Shown here piece after piece: positions 10,590-49,380 of a DNA stretch of 64,000 nucleotides (position 1 is its first letter; each line of letters begins with the position of its first letter). Origin of the DNA: Chloroflexota bacterium (GTDB lineage Bacteria > Chloroflexota > Anaerolineae > UBA1429); NCBI GenBank assembly GCA_019873625.1, contig JAIOAW010000006.1:13252-77251 (forward strand), in the 5' to 3' direction. A model generated the notes under the pieces. It was not told where the DNA came from. It saw only the letters and a program-made list of their open reading frames with translations, and did no database searches. The position numbers were made by a program, and so were the translations under genes.

Positions 10590-13064
10590 ATGGGGCAAGA
10601 TTTGCGACTCAAGCCGGAGCAATTGCGCCGCAGGTGCGATCCATCCGTCTTTTCGTTCACGTCCACGGCTGAACTCCCGCCCCTGAACCGCGTGTTAGGC
10701 CAATCTCGCGCCGTCCGCTCCATTGATTTCGGCATTGATATGCCCAACTATGGCTACAACATCTTTGCGGTGGGCTATGCCGGCTCAGGGCGCACCACCG
10801 CCGTGCGGCAATTCCTCGACCAGCGCGCCCCCAAGCGCCCTGCGCCGCCCGAGTGGTGCTATGTTTACAACTTTGAGGATCCTCGCCGCCCCAAGGCTAT
10901 CAGCCTGCCGCCGGGGAGGGCCTCCATCCTGCGGGAGCAGATGGCCGCCCTCATCCAGCGCCTGCAGCAGGAGATCCCCCGCGCCTTTGAGGGGCAACCC
11001 TTCGAACAGCGCCGCCGTGAACTCCTGATGAGCCTTCAACAAAAACAGCAGGCCCTGTTCGAAAATCTCGAGCGCTATCTGAACGAACGGGGGTTTGCCC
11101 TCATCCGCTCGCAGATGGGCCTGGGTATCGCCCCTATGCTCAACGGGGAGGTCCTTTCGCCAGAGGCCTATCAGAAGCTCGACCCCGAAATCAAGCGCCG
11201 TTTTGAGGCCTACCGCCCCGAACTCCAAGAGGAGTTCGACAAGGTGATGCGCCAGGTGCGCGAGTTGGACCGCCAAGGCCGCAACGCCATCGAGACGTTG
11301 ACGAACGAGTTGGCCGGCTTCGTGGTGGATACCCTGATGGCCGAACTCCGCGAGCAGTTTCAAGATTGCCCAAACGTCCAGCCCTATCTGGATAGCGTGC
11401 GGCGCGATATTGTCAGCAACGTCCAGCAATTCCTCCCCAGCGCCGACCAAAGCGCCGCCTTACCCTTTATGGGGGCGCTGGAGCGGGGAAGGTGGTTCTC
11501 TCGCTATGCGGTGAACGTCTTGGCCGAAACGCGAGACCGCACCTGTGCGCCCGTGGTCATCGAAGATAACCCCACTTACCACAATCTCATCGGGCGCATC
11601 GAGCATCGCGCCGAATTCGGCACGATGGTTACCGATTTCACGCAGATCCGCGCGGGGGCCTTGCACCGGGCGAACGGTGGCTACCTTGTGGTGGAGGCCA
11701 AGAACCTGCTCGTCAACCCCTTCGCTTGGGATGCCCTCAAGCGCGCCCTCCACAACCGCGAGATCAAGATCGAGGAGATGTCTCAATATTACGGCCTGGT
11801 GGCCACGTCCACCCTCGAGCCGGAACCCATCCCCCTCGATGTGAAGGTGATCCTCATCGGAGATCATCGCCTCTACCAACTCCTCTACCTCTTTGATGAG
11901 GATTTTCGCGAACTGTTCAAGGTGAAGGCCGAGTTTGGCCTGACGATGCCGCGCGATGAGGAGAGCCTGCGCGATTACGCCATCTTTGTGGGAGACCTGT
12001 GCCGCCGCGAGGGCCTGCTGCCCTTTGATGCGGGCGCCGTGGCGCGCCTGGTGGAGGAATCCTCTCGCCTGGTGGATGACCAAGAGAAACTGACCACGCA
12101 CTTTGCCTCCGTGGCCGACCTCATCCGCGAGGCCTCTTTTTGGGCAGGCCGGGCGGGCCGAGGGGTGGTGACGGCGGAGGACGTCCGCCAAGCGGTGGAG
12201 GAGCGCACGGCCCGGCTGGATTTGGCCGTGGAACGCTATGTCGAATCGGTGTTGAAGGGCGTCATCCTCATTGATACAGAGGGGAGCGTCGTCGGCCAGG
12301 TGAACGGCCTTTCGGTGGTGCAATCGGGCGAGTTTGTCTTTGGGTTGCCCTCGCGCATCACGGCGCGCACCTATCTGGGGCGCGCGGCGGTGGTGAGCAT
12401 CGAGCGCGAGGTCAGAATGAGCGGCCCCATTCATGATAAGGGGCAACTCATCCTGGCGGGGTACTTGGCCAGCCGTTTCGCCCAAAAGCACCCCTTGACG
12501 ATGTCGGCCAGTTTGACGTTTGAGCAGTTGTATTCCGGCGTAGAGGGCGATAGCGCCTCATCTACGGAACTGTATGCGCTCCTCTCTAGCCTGGCCGATG
12601 TGCCCATCAAGCAGGGGTTGGCGGTTACGGGGTCTGTGAATCAACTCGGGCAGGTGCAGGCCATCGGCGGCGTGAACGATAAAATCGAGGGGTTCTTCCG
12701 CGTGTGCAAGGCGCGGGGGTTGACGGGCGAACAGGGGGTACTCATCCCGGCGGCGAACGTACGCCACTTGATGCTGCGCGATGAGATCATCGAGGCCGTG
12801 CGCCAGGGCCAGTTTCACATCTATGCGGTCAACACGGTAGAAGAGGGTATCGAGATCCTGACGGGCATACCCGCCGGCGAGCCGGATGAAAACGGCGATT
12901 ACCCGCCCGACACGGTATATGGCCGCGTGCAGGCCAAGTTGGATCGCTATGCGGAACTTATGCGCGCGGAGGGCGAGCGCGCCGCGGAGAGGCCCAAGCC
13001 CCCGGAGGAAGCGCCCACGCCTCCTCCAGCGCCGGGCGAACCCCCCGTGCCCCAACCGAAATAA
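10590..13064 (+). CDS. Lon-related ATP-dependent protease (AAA+ domain + Lon S16 C-terminal proteolytic domain)
   Basis: FAVGYAGSGRTTAV (P-loop) in the N-terminal half; C-terminal ...EGDSASSTELYALLSSLADVPIKQGLAVTGSVNQLGQVQAIGGVNDKIEGFF, typical Lon proteolytic domain with Ser-Lys dyad region. Confidence 0.8.
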   Translation: MGQDLRLKPEQLRRRCDPSVFSFTSTAELPPLNRVLGQSRAVRSIDFGIDMPNYGYNIFAVGYAGSGRTTAVRQFLDQRAPKRPAPPEWCYVYNFEDPRRPKAISLPPGRASILREQMAALIQRLQQEIPRAFEGQPFEQRRRELLMSLQQKQQALFENLERYLNERGFALIRSQMGLGIAPMLNGEVLSPEAYQKLDPEIKRRFEAYRPELQEEFDKVMRQVRELDRQGRNAIETLTNELAGFVVDTLMAELREQFQDCPNVQPYLDSVRRDIVSNVQQFLPSADQSAALPFMGALERGRWFSRYAVNVLAETRDRTCAPVVIEDNPTYHNLIGRIEHRAEFGTMVTDFTQIRAGALHRANGGYLVVEAKNLLVNPFAWDALKRALHNREIKIEEMSQYYGLVATSTLEPEPIPLDVKVILIGDHRLYQLLYLFDEDFRELFKVKAEFGLTMPRDEESLRDYAIFVGDLCRREGLLPFDAGAVARLVEESSRLVDDQEKLTTHFASVADLIREASFWAGRAGRGVVTAEDVRQAVEERTARLDLAVERYVESVLKGVILIDTEGSVVGQVNGLSVVQSGEFVFGLPSRITARTYLGRAAVVSIEREVRMSGPIHDKGQLILAGYLASRFAQKHPLTMSASLTFEQLYSGVEGDSASSTELYALLSSLADVPIKQGLAVTGSVNQLGQVQAIGGVNDKIEGFFRVCKARGLTGEQGVLIPAANVRHLMLRDEIIEAVRQGQFHIYAVNTVEEGIEILTGIPAGEPDENGDYPPDTVYGRVQAKLDRYAELMRAEGERAAERPKPPEEAPTPPPAPGEPPVPQPK

Positions 13065-13069
13065 GACGT

Positions 13070-13101
13070 GAGGGAGCGGTTTATCCGCTCCCTCGCTCTT
13101 T
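13070..13101 (+). terminator. Bidirectional terminator hairpin between the Lon-related gene and the selenoprotein candidate
   Basis: GAGGGAGCGG tttat CCGCTCCCTC (10-bp stem) followed by GCTCTTT; convergent genes on both sides. Confidence 0.5.
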
Positions 13102-13110
13102 AGGGGAATT

Positions 13111-13470
13111 TCAGCCCATCACCGGGCCTTGAAGGGCCTGCTGGGCCTCTAAGGCTTCACGCACGGCTTGGATGACGACAAAGAATTCGAGGCTGCCGGC
13201 GCTTTTGAACTCACCATTGACGAAAAGAAGCGGGTAAACACGGTAGCCCTCTGGGACTTTGGCAAGGAGGTCTTGAAACTGCTCTTTGACCTCGCTTTGG
13301 GCCGCATCATAATAGGCCCAGGTCACCTGGCCATCGTAATAGTGCTCGAGATAGGTGCCGATGATCTCTGCGGTCTCCGCCGAAGACCGCCGCGGCCCTC
13401 AACCCATGCGGCAGCCCACTTCGCCCGCGCTGTTGCCCAAGATAAGCACGTGGACGGTGCCCTTTGCCAT
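13111..13470 (-). CDS. Candidate selenoprotein: YuzD-like (DUF1462) thioredoxin-fold protein with in-frame TGA (Sec) at 13399..13401
   Basis: Track ORFs 13399..13590(-) and 13111..13326(-) are in the same frame, separated only by TGA. Read-through translation: MAKGTVHVLILGNSAGEVGCRMG-U-GPRRSSAETAEIIGTYLEHYYDGQVTWAYYDA...YPLLFVNGEFKSAGS.... The TGA replaces the second Cys of the CxxC-type motif of YuzD-like proteins; a hairpin lies 9 nt downstream of the TGA; AGGAGG lies 6 nt upstream of the ATG at 13470. Confidence 0.6.
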
Positions 13471-13506
13471 ACCGTTCCTCCTGATGGTTTGATACCCTCT
13501 ATGGGT

Positions 13507-13542
13507 ATATGATATCATATCCTTGTAAAGGCCTCGTGTCAA
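13507..13542 (-). promoter_or_regulatory. Near-consensus sigma70 promoter (-35 TTGACA, 17 nt, -10 TATGAT) with perfect 14-bp palindrome ATATGATATCATAT overlapping the -10
   Basis: Minus-strand read: TTGACAcgaggcctttacaaggaTATGATatcatat...AGGAGGaacggtATG; palindrome at 13507..13520. Confidence 0.5.
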
Positions 13543-13595
13543 AAAAAGGCGCGGCGAGGAAAATCCGAAAATTCCCGAAAATGGCCCCAAAAAGG

Positions 13596-44197: not shown

Positions 44198-46855
44198 ATG
44201 AAGATCATCACCAGCCACGAGCGGGCCGATATGGATGCGTTGGCCTCCATTTATGCGGCCTCGCTCCTTTACCCAGATTTCATTGCGCTCCTCCCGCAAA
44301 AGATCAACCGTAACCTGCGGGATTTCGTGGCGCTGTATCGAGAGGCCCTGCCCTTTGTGGAGCGCCGCCACCTACCGCACCGGCGCATCAGCGAGGTCAT
44401 CTTGGTGGATACGCAGACCATCGCCCCCCTGCGAGGGATGGACGCCCACACGAGGATCCATATCATTGATCATCACCCTCTTGAGGTGCCCCTGGGCGAA
44501 AACATCACCTTCGAGGGAGACGCCGTGGGCGCCACCACTACCCTGCTCACCGAAAAGATCCGCGCCCAAGGGATCGCGCTGAATTCCGTGGGGGCCAGCC
44601 TCCTCTTGATGGGCATTTATGAAGATACGGGGTCCCTTTCGTACCTGACGACCACCGCGCGAGATGCCCAGGCGGCGGCGTGGCTCTTGGAAAAGGGCGC
44701 CGACCTGCGTTTGGTGGGCGAATATCTGCACCACCCCCTTTCCAGTGAGCAGCGCCAGGTTTTGACGCAACTCCTCAACCAAAGCACCCTGCACACCATC
44801 CGCGGGCGGAACATCTGCCTCTCGGCCGTGGTGCTTGACCAGTATGTGGACGAACTCTCCTCGCTCATCCACCAAATTATGGATATCTATGAGCCGGAGG
44901 CGTGTTTTATGCTGGCCCAACATGGGGAGAGCGTGCAGATCATCGCCCGCAGCGAGACGGACGCCATTGATGTGGCCGCGATCTTGCGGGAGTTCGGCGG
45001 CGGGGGGCACAGCAAGGCCGCCGCCGCGCATTGCGAAGGGGCCTCCATCGAGACCCTGAGCGCCGACCTCTTGCGCGCGCTAGAAAGGCACGTGGTGCCG
45101 CCGGTGCTCGTGCGCGAGATTATGTCCACCAACGTCCACACCCTGCCGGTGGATATGTCTATCCGCGAGGCGGCGCAACTGATGCGCCGCTACGGGCATG
45201 AGGGCTTCCCGGTGGTGGAGGGCGACCGCCTGGTGGGCGTCCTCACGCGGAGCGATGTGGACCGCGCCTTGCACCACCGTCGCGGTGAGACGCCCATCCG
45301 CAGCATCCTTTACACGGGGCCGGTATACGTCAGCCCGACGGCTCCGGTGGATGAGGTCCAGCGGGTGATGCTGGAATCTGGCCTGGGCCAGGTGCCCGTG
45401 GTGGAGGATGGGCGCTTTGTGGGGTTGGTAACGCGCACCGACCTCATCAAACTGTGGTCGGCGCCGCTTTACCCTTCTCGCCGGCCGGAAATTCGCCGGA
45501 TGATGGAGGAAGTCCTCCCGCCGGCCCTGCGGGACCTGCTTCTCACCGCGCGCGATGTAGCCAATGATATGGGTTATTCGCTCTATATCGTCGGTGGGTT
45601 CGTGCGAGACTTGCTCCTTGGCTCGCCGACGCTTGACCTGGACCTGGTAGTGGAGGGCGACGCCATCCGTATGGCGGAGGAACTGGGCCGCCGCTTGGGG
45701 GCGCGGGTGCGCAGCCATGCCCGCTTCGGCACGGCCAAGGTCATCCTCGATGGCGACCGCGCCACGGGCGTGCCCCCCTCGCTCGATTTTGTTACGGCGC
45801 GTACCGAGTTCTACGAGCGGCCCAGCGTCCTCCCGCAGGTGGAACGCAGTTCCATCAAGCAAGACCTCTACCGGCGCGATTTCACCATCAACACGTTGGC
45901 CATCTGCCTGGATCGTGGCCGCTATGGCGAATTGCTCGATTATTACGGCGGAGAACGGGATATTCGCGAGAAGCGCATCCAGGTTCTGCACAACCTGAGT
46001 TTCGTCGAGGACCCCACGCGCATCTTGCGGGCGGTGCGCTTCGAACAGCGCCTGGGCTTTACCATCGAGGCGCGCACCGAGGAACTAATCGGCGAGGCGC
46101 TGGACTTGCTCGACGATGTGAGCGGCGAACGGCTGCGGCACGAGTTGTACCTCATCCTCGCCGAGGATGAGCCAGAGAAGGCCCTCGATCGCCTATACCG
46201 CCTTGGGGTGCTCCAGCATCTTCACCCGGCCTTGCGCTTTGGCCGGGAGGTGGCGCAACTCTTTGTGCGGCTGCGCGAGCGCTTTTCGGCTTGGCCCCAA
46301 CCCGAGGGGCCTGGTGTGGATGCGGCAGACCTCGCCGAACGCCAGGCCGCCGCGATGAGGCTCTGCTATCTGGCGATCCTCACCAGCACCCTTACCCCCA
46401 AAGAGTTGGAGGAACTCGCCAACCGCCTGCGCTTTTCGGGGCGAGACAGCCGCTTCCTCCAAGAGGTGCGACGCCTGCGCGAGATGCTCAGCCAACTGCA
46501 ATCTACGGTGATGCTCCGAAGCACCATCTACCGCCTGCTCAGTCAATTCTCGCGCGAGGCGCGGTTCGTCATCACCGTGTTGACGGATTCTGAACTCGTC
46601 CGCGAGCGGCTCGACCTCTATGAGCGCACCCTTTCCACCGTCTCACCGCGCATTGACGGGCACTATCTCAGGGCGCTGGGCGTGCCGCCGGGGCCGATTT
46701 ACGGGGAAATCCTCGAACGCGTGCGCGATGCCGTGCTAGATGGCCAAGTGCAGACGCTTGAGGAAGAACAGGCCCTCGTGCGCCGCCTGGTGGGCGCGGC
46801 GCACAACGGCCGTTCCATCGGAGATAAAGTCAACGGGGCTAAAACACCCGCGTGA
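44198..46855 (+). CDS. tRNA nucleotidyltransferase (CCA-adding/poly(A) polymerase family) fused to N-terminal DHH-DHHA1 and tandem CBS domains
   Basis: N-terminal MKIITSHERADMDALAS (DHH), …GGGHSKAAA (DHHA1 GGGH), two CBS domains, then LYIVGGFVRDLLLG…DLDLVVEG…RRDFTINTLA (class II NTase head). Confidence 0.8.
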   Translation: MKIITSHERADMDALASIYAASLLYPDFIALLPQKINRNLRDFVALYREALPFVERRHLPHRRISEVILVDTQTIAPLRGMDAHTRIHIIDHHPLEVPLGENITFEGDAVGATTTLLTEKIRAQGIALNSVGASLLLMGIYEDTGSLSYLTTTARDAQAAAWLLEKGADLRLVGEYLHHPLSSEQRQVLTQLLNQSTLHTIRGRNICLSAVVLDQYVDELSSLIHQIMDIYEPEACFMLAQHGESVQIIARSETDAIDVAAILREFGGGGHSKAAAAHCEGASIETLSADLLRALERHVVPPVLVREIMSTNVHTLPVDMSIREAAQLMRRYGHEGFPVVEGDRLVGVLTRSDVDRALHHRRGETPIRSILYTGPVYVSPTAPVDEVQRVMLESGLGQVPVVEDGRFVGLVTRTDLIKLWSAPLYPSRRPEIRRMMEEVLPPALRDLLLTARDVANDMGYSLYIVGGFVRDLLLGSPTLDLDLVVEGDAIRMAEELGRRLGARVRSHARFGTAKVILDGDRATGVPPSLDFVTARTEFYERPSVLPQVERSSIKQDLYRRDFTINTLAICLDRGRYGELLDYYGGERDIREKRIQVLHNLSFVEDPTRILRAVRFEQRLGFTIEARTEELIGEALDLLDDVSGERLRHELYLILAEDEPEKALDRLYRLGVLQHLHPALRFGREVAQLFVRLRERFSAWPQPEGPGVDAADLAERQAAAMRLCYLAILTSTLTPKELEELANRLRFSGRDSRFLQEVRRLREMLSQLQSTVMLRSTIYRLLSQFSREARFVITVLTDSELVRERLDLYERTLSTVSPRIDGHYLRALGVPPGPIYGEILERVRDAVLDGQVQTLEEEQALVRRLVGAAHNGRSIGDKVNGAKTPA

Positions 46856-47858
46856 TCTCGTCCACATCGAAGCGGGGCAGGGCCTGCTCTTTAGCCCCGC
46901 GCACCATCACGCGCTGGTTGGGGTCCGGCAAGAGTTCGCCGATCTCGACGCAGGGGATGTTCTCTTGCCGATAGCGCGCGATGAGGTCGGCAGCCCGCTC
47001 GGCCTCCACGGCGATGAGCAGCGCGCCCGAGGCGATGACGCCGAGGGGGTCGAGGCCGAATTCGGCGCATAGGCGTGCGCCCTCTTCCAAGATGGGCACG
47101 ACGTCGGCGTTCAGGCGAACCCCCACGTTCGCGGCGGAGGCCATCTCGTGCAGGCCCGTGGCCAAGCCGCCTTCCGTTGGGTCATGCATCGCGTGCACGC
47201 CCGGCATATCGGCGGCCAACCGCGCCGCTTGCACCACGCTGATGCCGGGGTCATAGAGATACCCCTGCGCCTTGCGGAGAAAGGCCTCCGTATAGCCCCG
47301 GCGGCGCAAGGCCTCGGCCTTTTCGCGCGCGATGAGGGCCGTGCCCTCGATGGGGATGCCCTTGACGAGGAGGATGCGGTCTCCGACGCGGGCGCCCGCC
47401 GTGGTGAGCAGCCTTTCGCGGGGCACCTCGCCGATCATCACCCCCACCACGATGGGCCGATCCAGCCCCCAAGTAACCTCCGTATGCCCTCCCACGAGGA
47501 GGATGCCCAGTTCGTCGCAAGCCTCGCGCAGTTGGCGAAAAATGGTGTGCACCACATCGAGGTTCGTCTTGCCCTCTGGCAAAAGGACGGTGTTCAGCAT
47601 CCACAGGGGGCGGGCGCCGCTCGTGGCGATATCGTTCGCGTTGACGTGCACGGCATACCAGCCGATTTGGTCGCTGGCAAAGGTGATGGGGTCCGTTTTG
47701 ACGACGATGTAGCGGTCGCCCATATCAATCACGGCCACATCTTCGCCCACAGCCGGCCCGGCGATAAGGCGCGGATCGGCCCTGCGGCAGTGCTCCAAAA
47801 GGCTTTGGAGGACCTCCATCGGCAGTTTGCCCACGGGGAAGATGCCATCCTCAGGCAT
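46839..47858 (-). CDS. AIR-synthase-related (PurM superfamily; HypE/ThiL-like) protein
   Basis: …GEDVAVIDMGDRYIVVKTDPITFASD…ANDIATSGARP…; lacks the C-terminal Cys of true HypE; GGAGGTG upstream of ATG 47858. Confidence 0.6.
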   Translation of the reverse strand: MPEDGIFPVGKLPMEVLQSLLEHCRRADPRLIAGPAVGEDVAVIDMGDRYIVVKTDPITFASDQIGWYAVHVNANDIATSGARPLWMLNTVLLPEGKTNLDVVHTIFRQLREACDELGILLVGGHTEVTWGLDRPIVVGVMIGEVPRERLLTTAGARVGDRILLVKGIPIEGTALIAREKAEALRRRGYTEAFLRKAQGYLYDPGISVVQAARLAADMPGVHAMHDPTEGGLATGLHEMASAANVGVRLNADVVPILEEGARLCAEFGLDPLGVIASGALLIAVEAERAADLIARYRQENIPCVEIGELLPDPNQRVMVRGAKEQALPRFDVDEITRVF

Positions 47859-47885
47859 AGGCGGTTCCACCTCCCGCAAGGGTTA

Positions 47886-47964: not shown

Positions 47965-49287
47965 TTACACCTTTTCGGCCTTGGCCTTTTTGGGCGGCAA
48001 GAACTCGAAAATGGCGTTCAAGAGGATGCCCACGACGGCCGAGGTGGCGATGGCCGGCAGCCCCGAAGGGAAGGCCGCCTTGAGGAAGGGGATGTTGATG
48101 GGCAGGTTGCCCCCTTCAAAGGCCGAGCCGCCGATGCCGATGACCAAGATCACCGCGCCCACAGCGAGTTGGCGCGGGTCAAACAGGTTGACCTTTTCGG
48201 ATTGGATGAGCGCCACGCCTTGCAGGCCGATGACGCCAAAGAGAAAGATGGCTAGCCCCCCGGTAACGGGGACGGGGAGCGTCTCGACGATGGCGGCCAA
48301 CTTGCCGATGAAGCCGAGCAGGATGGCAATGACGCCCGCTGCGATGAGCACGGGGCAGGAATAGTTCCGCGTGATGGCCATCAGCGAGTTATTTTCGCCA
48401 TAGTTCGTGCCGGCGCACCCGCCTAAAAAGCCGTTGATAGCGTCTCCGATGCCATCCAAGATGAGGTTGAGGCCGATGAGGTTTTTGATCTGCAAGGGCT
48501 TGCGCTTCATCTCTTCGGCGAGTTCATCCACATAAAGGCTGATCTGATAGAGGTGCGCGGTGGATTCCGGAATGGTGGCGATGGCGATGGGCGCGATGGC
48601 GACGATGGCCCCCCACTTGAAAACGGGCAAACTGAAGGCGGGGACGCGCAGCCATTTGGCCTCCATCACCGGGGTAAAGTCCACCAGGCCCAAGGCCCAC
48701 GAGAGGAGATACCCAGCGAGCGCCCCCAAAAGGACAGGGATCATCGAGACGAACCCCCTCCCCCGCAAATACACGGAAAAGAGCACCGTGGCCAGGAGCG
48801 TAAAGAAGGCGATGCCCCAGTGGGCGCTGGCCATATCGAGCGCGGCCTTGGCGAGGGAAATGCCGATGACGATGGCCACCGAGCCGGTGACGATGGGCGG
48901 GAGCACGCGATCGAGCGAGTTCTTGCCCGTCCAGCGGATGAGCAAGCCCGCTAGAATGGAGACGAGCGCCGTAGCCACGATGCCCCCTTGGGCCACGCGC
49001 ACACCGCCCCACTCGGCCCCGACCACAGCGGCCACGGCGGCGATGTAACTGAAACTCGAGCCGTAATAGAGGGGGATGCGCATCCCCGAGCCGAGCAAGG
49101 CCACGATGGTGGCTAGGCCGCTGGCAAAAAGGGTCACCCCCACGTCGAACCCCGTGAGGATGGCCACCAAGACGGTCGCCGGGAACATCGTGAGGACGTG
49201 CTGAAAGCCCAGGGCGACGAGCGCTGGCAGGGGCGGGCGATCCTGCGGCAGGTAACCGATTGGCTGCGTATTCGTTTGGGCAGACAC
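47965..49287 (-). CDS. NCS2-family nucleobase permease (uracil/xanthine permease-like)
   Basis: …FQHVLTMFPATVLV… and multiple TM segments characteristic of NCS2; start set at GTG 49287, preceded by AAGGAGG. Confidence 0.8.
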   Translation of the reverse strand: MSAQTNTQPIGYLPQDRPPLPALVALGFQHVLTMFPATVLVAILTGFDVGVTLFASGLATIVALLGSGMRIPLYYGSSFSYIAAVAAVVGAEWGGVRVAQGGIVATALVSILAGLLIRWTGKNSLDRVLPPIVTGSVAIVIGISLAKAALDMASAHWGIAFFTLLATVLFSVYLRGRGFVSMIPVLLGALAGYLLSWALGLVDFTPVMEAKWLRVPAFSLPVFKWGAIVAIAPIAIATIPESTAHLYQISLYVDELAEEMKRKPLQIKNLIGLNLILDGIGDAINGFLGGCAGTNYGENNSLMAITRNYSCPVLIAAGVIAILLGFIGKLAAIVETLPVPVTGGLAIFLFGVIGLQGVALIQSEKVNLFDPRQLAVGAVILVIGIGGSAFEGGNLPINIPFLKAAFPSGLPAIATSAVVGILLNAIFEFLPPKKAKAEKV

Positions 49288-49380
49288 AGGGCCTCCTTTG
49301 GAAAGAATGTATTTGGAACCCCACATCTCTTCGCCCTAAAGGGCGGTGGCTCCCGAAGGGCAGGCGCGCTTGCGCGGCAC

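Follow-up and report, generated by a model that had tools for sequence, protein, structure and literature searches.

A probable selenocysteine-encoding YuzD-like gene of Anaerolineae, with an invariant RNA hairpin downstream of its in-frame UGA

Does the TGA codon that interrupts a small minus-strand gene of a Chloroflexota bacterium terminate translation, or does it encode selenocysteine (Sec)? The gene lies in a 64,000-nt stretch of contig JAIOAW010000006.1 (assembly GCA_019873625.1, positions 13,252 to 77,251), which we refer to in its entirety as the window. A sequence-only reading of this DNA proposed that two open reading frames (ORFs) separated by the TGA form one 119-codon gene, preceded by a strong Shine–Dalgarno sequence and a near-consensus promoter. 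The product was taken to be a thioredoxin-fold protein of the DUF1462/YuzD family in a Sec form that might not yet be catalogued, with Sec standing where the family has the second Cys of its CxxC motif, a partner Cys in a C-x3-U arrangement and a hairpin with a 7-nt loop following the UGA. Here, we compare the locus with its relatives in genomes and metagenomes. We consider it highly probable that the locus is a genuine Sec-encoding gene, and we find that both the UGA and a 17-nt hairpin behind it are retained throughout a family of divergent sequences.

The two minus-strand ORFs (13399..13590 and 13111..13326) share a frame and are separated by one TGA (13401-13399), and reading through from the ATG (13470-13468) to the stop TGA (13113-13111) yields 119 codons; sequence and translation thus confirm the proposed layout, as they do the ribosome-binding site and the promoter. 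The most likely product is a YuzD-like (DUF1462) selenoprotein of roughly 13 kDa that adopts a thioredoxin fold. The features of the locus, all on the minus strand, are as follows.

13111..13470, minus strand: putative YuzD-like selenoprotein coding sequence, complete, with 118 sense codons and the Sec codon (sequence and translation; full-length frame kept in relatives).
13399..13401, minus strand: in-frame UGA, codon 24, the putative Sec codon (TGA in all relatives; aligned to the second Cys of the CxxC motif of 1XG8).
13411..13413, minus strand: TGC codon of Cys20, the likely resolving partner of Sec (C-x3-U; near-invariant alignment column).
13372..13388, minus strand: SECIS-like (selenocysteine insertion sequence-like) hairpin core, GGUCUUC-GGC-GGAGACC, encoded by the R-S-S-x-E-T codons (fixed synonymous sites; RNAalifold).
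13477..13482, minus strand: Shine–Dalgarno sequence AGGAGG, 6 nt ahead of the ATG (sequence; GGAG-type sites in nearly all relatives).
13514..13542, minus strand: match to a sigma-70-type promoter, TTGACA-17 nt-TATGAT, 11 of 12 positions (consensus scan).
13492..13508, minus strand: CsoR/CstR-type operator-like palindrome ATACCC-N5-GGGTAT (TAC-N9-GTA), 6 nt past the -10 box (motif scan).
13070..13094, minus strand: terminator-like hairpin with a T-rich tail, past the stop codon (overlaps the final codons of a convergent Lon-like gene, whose stop is at 13064).

We searched for relatives in two ways. A genome collection was scanned with a pattern in which the hairpin core was fixed and the codon was left as TGN, and this returned 34 species-representative genomes, all Chloroflexota metagenome-assembled genomes and mostly Anaerolineae. 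The codon is TGA in all 34 loci, with full reading frames on either side, and GGAG-type ribosome-binding sites precede a start codon located 17–27 codons upstream of it. A metagenome collection was searched with a codon-neutral pattern (TGN GGN CCN NNN MGN WSN WSN NNN GAR ACN plus three distal residues), which gave at least 120 matches, at least 106 of them unique; TGA occurs in 120 of the 120 matches listed and in each of the 106 unique ones. In total, about 140 divergent sequences with 27–50% protein identity carry the TGA, and its conservation with coding sequence on both flanks agrees with the initial proposal. Six loci are unbiased with respect to the upstream sequence: the window and five fetched through protein matches. 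Five of the six contain the in-frame TGA together with a conserved N terminus (V-x-V-L-G-N-S-x-G-E-x-C-x-x-G), and the TGA is at the same column in each of the four protein-derived loci with enough upstream sequence. Our alignment (A3) shows no variation at E17 and almost none at G12, C20 and G23 ahead of the TGA, and past it GP-RSS-ET never changes. As judged from this alignment, the conserved upstream flank is coding sequence. The layout of the promoter, TTGACA..TATAnT, recurs in many relatives.

Were the TGA to terminate translation, the gene would have to be split, truncated or decaying, or only the 71-residue downstream ORF starting from the GTG at 13326 would be made. Public gene calls all follow this reading, and the Sec machinery was not seen in the window. 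A word-index protein search with the read-through protein returned only the window's own 71-residue fragment, and phmmer, run exhaustively with the 95 residues beyond the TGA as query, returned 25 matches, nearly all 57–92 residues long and starting a few residues past the TGA column. Gene callers, however, truncate selenoprotein genes in just this way. Moreover, a pseudogene would not persist as the same TGA and the same conserved, Shine–Dalgarno-preceded upstream frame in about 140 divergent sequences, and the first in-frame start past the TGA is 25 codons downstream, so that initiation there would delete helix α1, with the invariant G-P-x-R-S-S-x-E-T lying between the TGA and that start. 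Termination at this codon is therefore extremely unlikely. The family members examined in NCBI, JGI, ENA and Logan-derived calls are either 57–92 residues long or mistranslated with Trp. Protein P0001 and about 77 others comprise only the part after the TGA (the JGI name being ‘disulfide oxidoreductase YuzD’). In P0004 and P0027-P0029, which are ENA metagenome calls, the family TGA is given as Trp, apparently under an alternative genetic code applied to short contigs; P0004, the sole full-length phmmer match, has a W at the UGA column where the DNA has TGA, and its translation is not that of table 11.

To which protein family the read-through product belongs is answered by profile and structure comparisons. 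All 33 aligned family members match Pfam DUF1462 (PF07315) at E ≤ 0.01, the best at 2.2e-10, and precomputed PF07315 matches exist for many database fragments; no NCBIfam model matches the YuzD-like family. A profile of the family finds the Staphylococcus aureus protein SA0798 (Protein Data Bank entry 1XG8; E = 2.7e-7), in which the second Cys of a CxxC motif is aligned with U. We generated an AlphaFold (AF2) model of P0004 with W in place of U. The model has a mean predicted local distance difference test score of 87.2 and a predicted template modelling (TM) score of 0.82, with elements in the order β-α-β-α-β-β-α and the C...U loop between β1 and α1. A Foldseek search with it returned 1XG8 as the top Protein Data Bank match (E = 3e-4, TM score 0.61), followed by thioredoxins. 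These results uphold the assignment to a DUF1462/YuzD-like family with a thioredoxin fold, and they place the UGA at the second Cys of CxxC, a position that is also Cys in the relative P0104. The partner Cys is nearly always present. The proposed C-x3-U arrangement holds for the window gene, but the spacing varies across the family, ranging from C-U to Cx5U (C-x(0-5)-U) and being mostly Cx3U (45 sequences) or Cx4U (40), with CxU in 10, CxxU in 4 and CU in 3. The YuzD-type arrangement, CxxC before helix α1, is thus not general here, as a strict CxxU spacing occurs in only 4 of 103 sequences.

Compared with YuzD proteins (PF07315; Bacillus subtilis YuzD; 1XG8), the family shares size, the thioredoxin-like fold and a C-terminal YPL(V/L)xxNG segment. 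In contrast to them, it contains a putative Sec for Cys and a clade-specific U-G-P-x-R-S-S-x-E-T motif that doubles as an RNA hairpin, and in the genome-collection scan the clade was found in Chloroflexota/Anaerolineae only, whereas YuzD itself is found in Firmicutes. The clade appears to be near-exclusively Sec-containing: among 82 clusters, the sole Cys-containing relative is the distant P0104 (L163:3644-4021), which reads ...GCGCGP... (SGCGCGPGCCGSGDET) and shows no hairpin after the Cys codon. The P0104 gene lies just upstream of genes for a universal stress protein, a CMD-domain protein, ArsD and ArsA, a setting that may point to a metalloid or soft-metal role in the wider family. ArsD (PF06953) is likewise small and has a thioredoxin fold, its β1–α1 loop carrying clustered soft-ligand residues, and the only Cys form found adjoins arsD and arsA. 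No family member has a significant ArsD Pfam match at E ≤ 0.01, and we treat the likeness as a lead to a metal- or metalloid-binding role, not as membership.

The nucleotides following the UGA form a hairpin of 17 nt (GGUCUUCGNNGGAGACC), comprising a 7-bp stem and a triloop that begins with G and starts 18 nt after the UGA. In the window, the minimum free energy fold (GCGGUCUUC-GGC-GGAGACCGC, 13390-13370) extends this core by two G-C pairs; the part conserved in relatives is the inner GGUCUUC/GGAGACC stem with a GNN triloop (13388-13372). RNAalifold analysis of 32 diverse members likewise recovered only this 7-bp stem and triloop, and we found no conserved or co-varying lower stem when we sought one. 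The hairpin of the sequence-only reading therefore exists and is conserved, but its loop is 3 nt, G first, and not 7 nt. Its conservation was borne out at the nucleotide level, being kept against synonymous drift. Among the 106 unique codon-neutral metagenome sequences listed, codon usage across the R-S-S-x-E-T segment, numbered from the Gly that follows the UGA, is as follows.

Arg4: CGG or AGG only.
Ser5: TCT always.
Ser6: TCG always.
x7 (A, E, L, S or W): third base G always.
Glu8: GAG always.
Thr9: ACC, with one ACT, which turns a G-C pair into G-U.

By contrast, Gly1, Pro2, Val25, Tyr29 and Asp31, which are equally invariant as residues, use all their synonymous codons. TCT makes up 13% of the Ser codons in the window, and the joint probability of these codons is about 0.003 per independent lineage. 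Since third positions are frozen in the RSSxET codons and free in other invariant residues, the 17-nt hairpin is, on the direct basis of sequence invariance and not of compensatory change, an RNA-level signal tied to the UGA. It has the attributes of a bacterial SECIS element: a stem of at least 4 bp (7 bp here), a G first in the loop, and a loop within 16–37 nt of the UGA, a consensus reportedly described by Zhang and Gladyshev in 2005. Like the bacterial SECIS elements of Escherichia coli fdhF and Moorella thermoacetica fdhA, it is located in the ORF directly 3′ of the UGA, with a G at the first loop position and a distance of about 17–18 nt from UGA to loop, inside that range. The string GGUCU also occurs in the apical regions of fdhF and fdhA. 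Unlike those elements, the hairpin has a 7-bp stem, a 3-nt loop and no evident bulged U, and its whole 17 nt are invariant instead of co-varying.

In many relatives the YuzD-like gene adjoins a second gene with an in-frame TGA, which is itself a candidate selenoprotein gene. This gene, at L031:2832-3236 on the plus strand and absent from the window, encodes a membrane-anchored thioredoxin-like protein with a UxxC motif, and it is annotated only as a 71-residue thioredoxin fragment. It is also present in L027, L040, L050, L056, L060, L085, L094, L101, L113, L118, L120, L121, L131, L137, L143, L149 and L156. The TGA falls at the first Cys of CxxC (VEFYSNT-U-SxC-LVAKPIVDG) in 19 distinct sequence variants, or about 15 after merging closely similar contigs, and is followed downstream by a hairpin, CCCAUC-GNG-GAUGGG, with compensatory changes from A-U to G-C in L027 and L085. 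As Sec-containing thioredoxin-like proteins are an established class, this second gene is an independent indication of Sec decoding at UGA in these Anaerolineae.

It also bears on whether the UGA could be recoded in some other way, either by hairpin-stimulated near-cognate read-through (inserting Trp, Cys or Arg) or because UGA stands for Trp or Gly throughout the lineage. Some metagenome pipelines did assign W under an alternative code. However, TGA ends 7 of the 19 long ORFs of the window and 36 of 101 family genes, the window gene included; TGA is thus an ordinary stop here and the genetic code is standard. Furthermore, the recoded position corresponds to the redox Cys of CxxC in 1XG8, the classic Sec/Cys pair, the TGA of the adjoining thioredoxin-like gene stands exactly at the first Cys of its CxxC, and the geometry of the YuzD-like hairpin agrees with the consensus for bacteria. 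We therefore regard recoding to another amino acid as having a slim chance, and retain Sec insertion as the preferred reading.

Several observations weigh against our reading of the gene, its family and its regulation. No selA, selB, selD or tRNA-Sec gene was found in the 64-kb window or in the roughly 0.8 Mb of flanking sequence retrieved, so that the Sec-decoding trait of this genome rests on inference. The window protein, with U replaced by C, scores 24.3 bits against DUF1462, under the threshold of 25 (E = 3.9e-5), and the window contains no PF02583 (CsoR-like) gene. One outlier, L004:1-304, lacks the TGA-GGN-CCN context and has a TAA eight codons upstream; it lies at a contig end, starts only 25 nt upstream of the gene and carries a GGTCTTCGGAGGAGACC motif with RSSEET, and a deletion, loss of gene function or faulty assembly could account for it. 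As for the hairpin, its z-score against shuffled sequences is -1.7 in this 63% G+C sequence, which is not beyond chance alone, and about 10% of alternative synonymous codings of this peptide yield folds that are no worse. Unlike this single-sequence result, the UGA and the fixed synonymous sites in relatives constitute a signal far beyond chance. An Rfam scan of the window at the gathering thresholds gave no match. RNAalifold detected no covariation, because the hairpin never varies, and the invariant RNA overlaps the invariant peptide RSSxET, so that part of the conservation is at the protein level.

These last two points, together with a loop of only 3 nt (the loop of E. coli fdhF differs from it), are what would be expected if the motif were not a SECIS but reflected coding constraint, a regulatory RNA or protein site or pausing, with UGA decoding driven otherwise. 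Yet constraint on the protein cannot fix third positions (TCT then TCG, NGG, NNG), the motif stands at a fixed distance past the UGA and is missing from the Cys form P0104, and a comparable stem, capped by a G-first triloop and showing compensatory changes, is present in the adjoining thioredoxin-like gene. That the motif is something other than a SECIS thus seems very unlikely, and we continue with Sec insertion directed by the hairpin.

The search for the machinery used E. coli SelA, SelB and SelD as tblastn queries, and the only match was an ORF of the AIR-synthase family (46842-47879, minus strand). We rejected it as SelD: it has 28% identity to E. coli SelD over 343 residues, scores 95 against a cut-off of 125 for the NCBIfam selD model, scores higher with hypE (also under the HypE cut-off), and lacks the Gly-rich N-terminal loop with Cys or Sec. 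The ORF adjoins a xanthine/uracil permease gene (47968-49326). ARAGORN detected no tRNA-Sec in the window or the related loci; a 91-nt ‘tRNA-Lys(ctt)’ that it called at L021:7707-7797 lies inside an apparent coding sequence and is probably a false positive, not a tRNA-Sec. A crude scan of the window for other genes with an in-frame TGA gave 84 candidates, nearly all shadow ORFs in this high-G+C DNA, and was uninformative. A Sec-containing FdhA has been reported for the Chloroflexi single-cell genome SAG An-B22 (PMC5736913).

Is a Sec form of this family already catalogued? Like the known thioredoxin-fold selenoproteins (thioredoxin-like, glutaredoxin-like, peroxiredoxin, DsbA-like, SelW-like and similar families of the Zhang and Gladyshev surveys), the YuzD-like protein has a putative Sec in place of a redox-motif Cys at the start of helix α1, as well as Cys homologues, a stem-loop after the UGA within the ORF and routine misannotation as truncated. 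Unlike them, DUF1462/YuzD is not among the families named in the searchable literature, in which, surveys and a deep-Sep study with nine new families included, we found no link between DUF1462, YuzD or COG4837 and selenocysteine. NCBIfam likewise describes no Sec form, in agreement with the suggestion made at the outset, and the gene is very probably that of a selenoprotein not catalogued before. Mechanistically it would be a classical bacterial selenoprotein gene, and by family a Sec-containing offshoot of DUF1462/YuzD; what sets it apart is the near-exclusive use of Sec, a SECIS merged with an unvarying peptide motif, and its apparent place in a CsoR/CstR-type regulon. It would add a well-supported bacterial Sec family in a phylum (Chloroflexota/Anaerolineae) that the selenoprotein surveys in the searchable literature barely cover, and a dedicated model would correct the truncated and mistranslated entries. 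The position of Sec would mark the catalytic residue of a family with a solved structure and no known function. The invariant 17-nt hairpin that encodes R-S-S-x-E-T clearly illustrates a joint constraint on RNA and protein, and may serve as a tool to find more selenoprotein genes of this lineage.

How would the gene be expressed, and what might its product do? In the mechanism we propose, translation would start from the ATG at 13470, and the UGA at 13401-13399 would be decoded as Sec via the downstream SECIS-type hairpin, which, by analogy to known bacterial SECIS elements, would recruit SelB with Sec-tRNA(Sec) to the ribosome. Sec24 would be positioned in the β1–α1 loop and, with the nearby Cys20, would probably form a selenenylsulfide/selenol–thiol redox centre or a soft-metal-binding centre. 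A CsoR/CstR-family repressor bound to the palindrome over the transcription start would probably control expression, and the protein would then be part of a copper/reactive-sulfur thiol-stress response, to which some relatives would add trxB, trxA and the second Sec thioredoxin-like protein. The data establish that the UGA, both its flanks, the RNA motif and the operator are conserved, along with the fold and the family relationship; from there, we infer that Sec is inserted and SelB bound, and how the centre reacts and is regulated. That copper or reactive-sulfur stress induces a protein with a selenol/thiol redox or soft-metal centre is a possibility that we put forward tentatively.

The case for such regulation comes from the operator and its context. 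The palindrome ATACCC-N5-GGGTAT (13492-13508) is the only match in the window, where 0.05 is expected, and 47 of 120 unique loci (including L007, L010, L012, L015-L018, L022, L024, L025, L028-L030, L035, L038 and L039) carry a TAC-N9-GTA element 93–131 nt ahead of the TGA. The palindrome matches published CsoR and CstR operators (PMC3902906, PMC8643695), resembling the Streptomyces CsoR consensus ATATACCCCTNAGGGGTATAT and the Streptococcus mitis cst operator ATATACCCTTATGGGGTATAT. As in CsoR/CstR regulons, PF02583 repressor genes are nearby in several loci, namely L017, L021, L031, L096, L131, L140 and L150. In L031 the operon order is trxB, trxA, the membrane thioredoxin-like gene and the YuzD-like gene; within L031:1110-2832, a PF02583 gene is divergent from trxB and trxA and upstream of both TGA genes. 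In operon-type loci such as this one, the operator is located between the csoR-like gene and trxB, about 1.9 kb upstream. Aligned to B. subtilis CsoR, the L031 regulator has Gln at the position of a Cu-ligand His and looks CstR-like; the L017 regulator keeps the His. The targets differ from those of known CsoR/CstR regulons, in which genes for copper efflux (copZA) or sulfide oxidation (cst) are controlled: here, they would be the Sec YuzD-like protein, joined in some genomes by trxB, trxA and the Sec thioredoxin-like gene.

These findings allow a broader and rather doubtful proposal: that Anaerolineae possess a selenium-dependent branch of the CsoR/CstR stress regulon, comprising an obligately Sec-containing YuzD-like protein, often with the Sec membrane thioredoxin-like protein and TrxB/TrxA, which would be derepressed by copper or reactive sulfur species, with the C-x(n)-U centre working through its selenol either as a depersulfidase or as a disulfide reductase, or handling Cu(I) or metalloids instead. 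If true, this would be the first functional assignment for DUF1462/YuzD, in a protein whose SECIS is fused to an invariant peptide motif. The operator together with the trxB–trxA operon context points to a role in copper or persulfide stress that can be tested.

In the window, the YuzD-like gene is solitary and convergent with a Lon-like protease gene, a layout shared by 12 of 27 loci. This neighbour (10590-13064, plus strand) encodes a LonC-like AAA protease; it has its terminator region in common with the selenoprotein gene and no evident functional link to it. In L033 (from a metagenome-assembled genome; minus strand, gene start near 2918 of the reverse complement), the family gene lacks a stop codon and continues for about 120 extra codons. 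The extension begins like the N terminus of a glutaredoxin/thioredoxin-like two-domain gene that is the downstream neighbour in L013, L014, L023 and L026, and is probably due to a frameshift or an assembly error.

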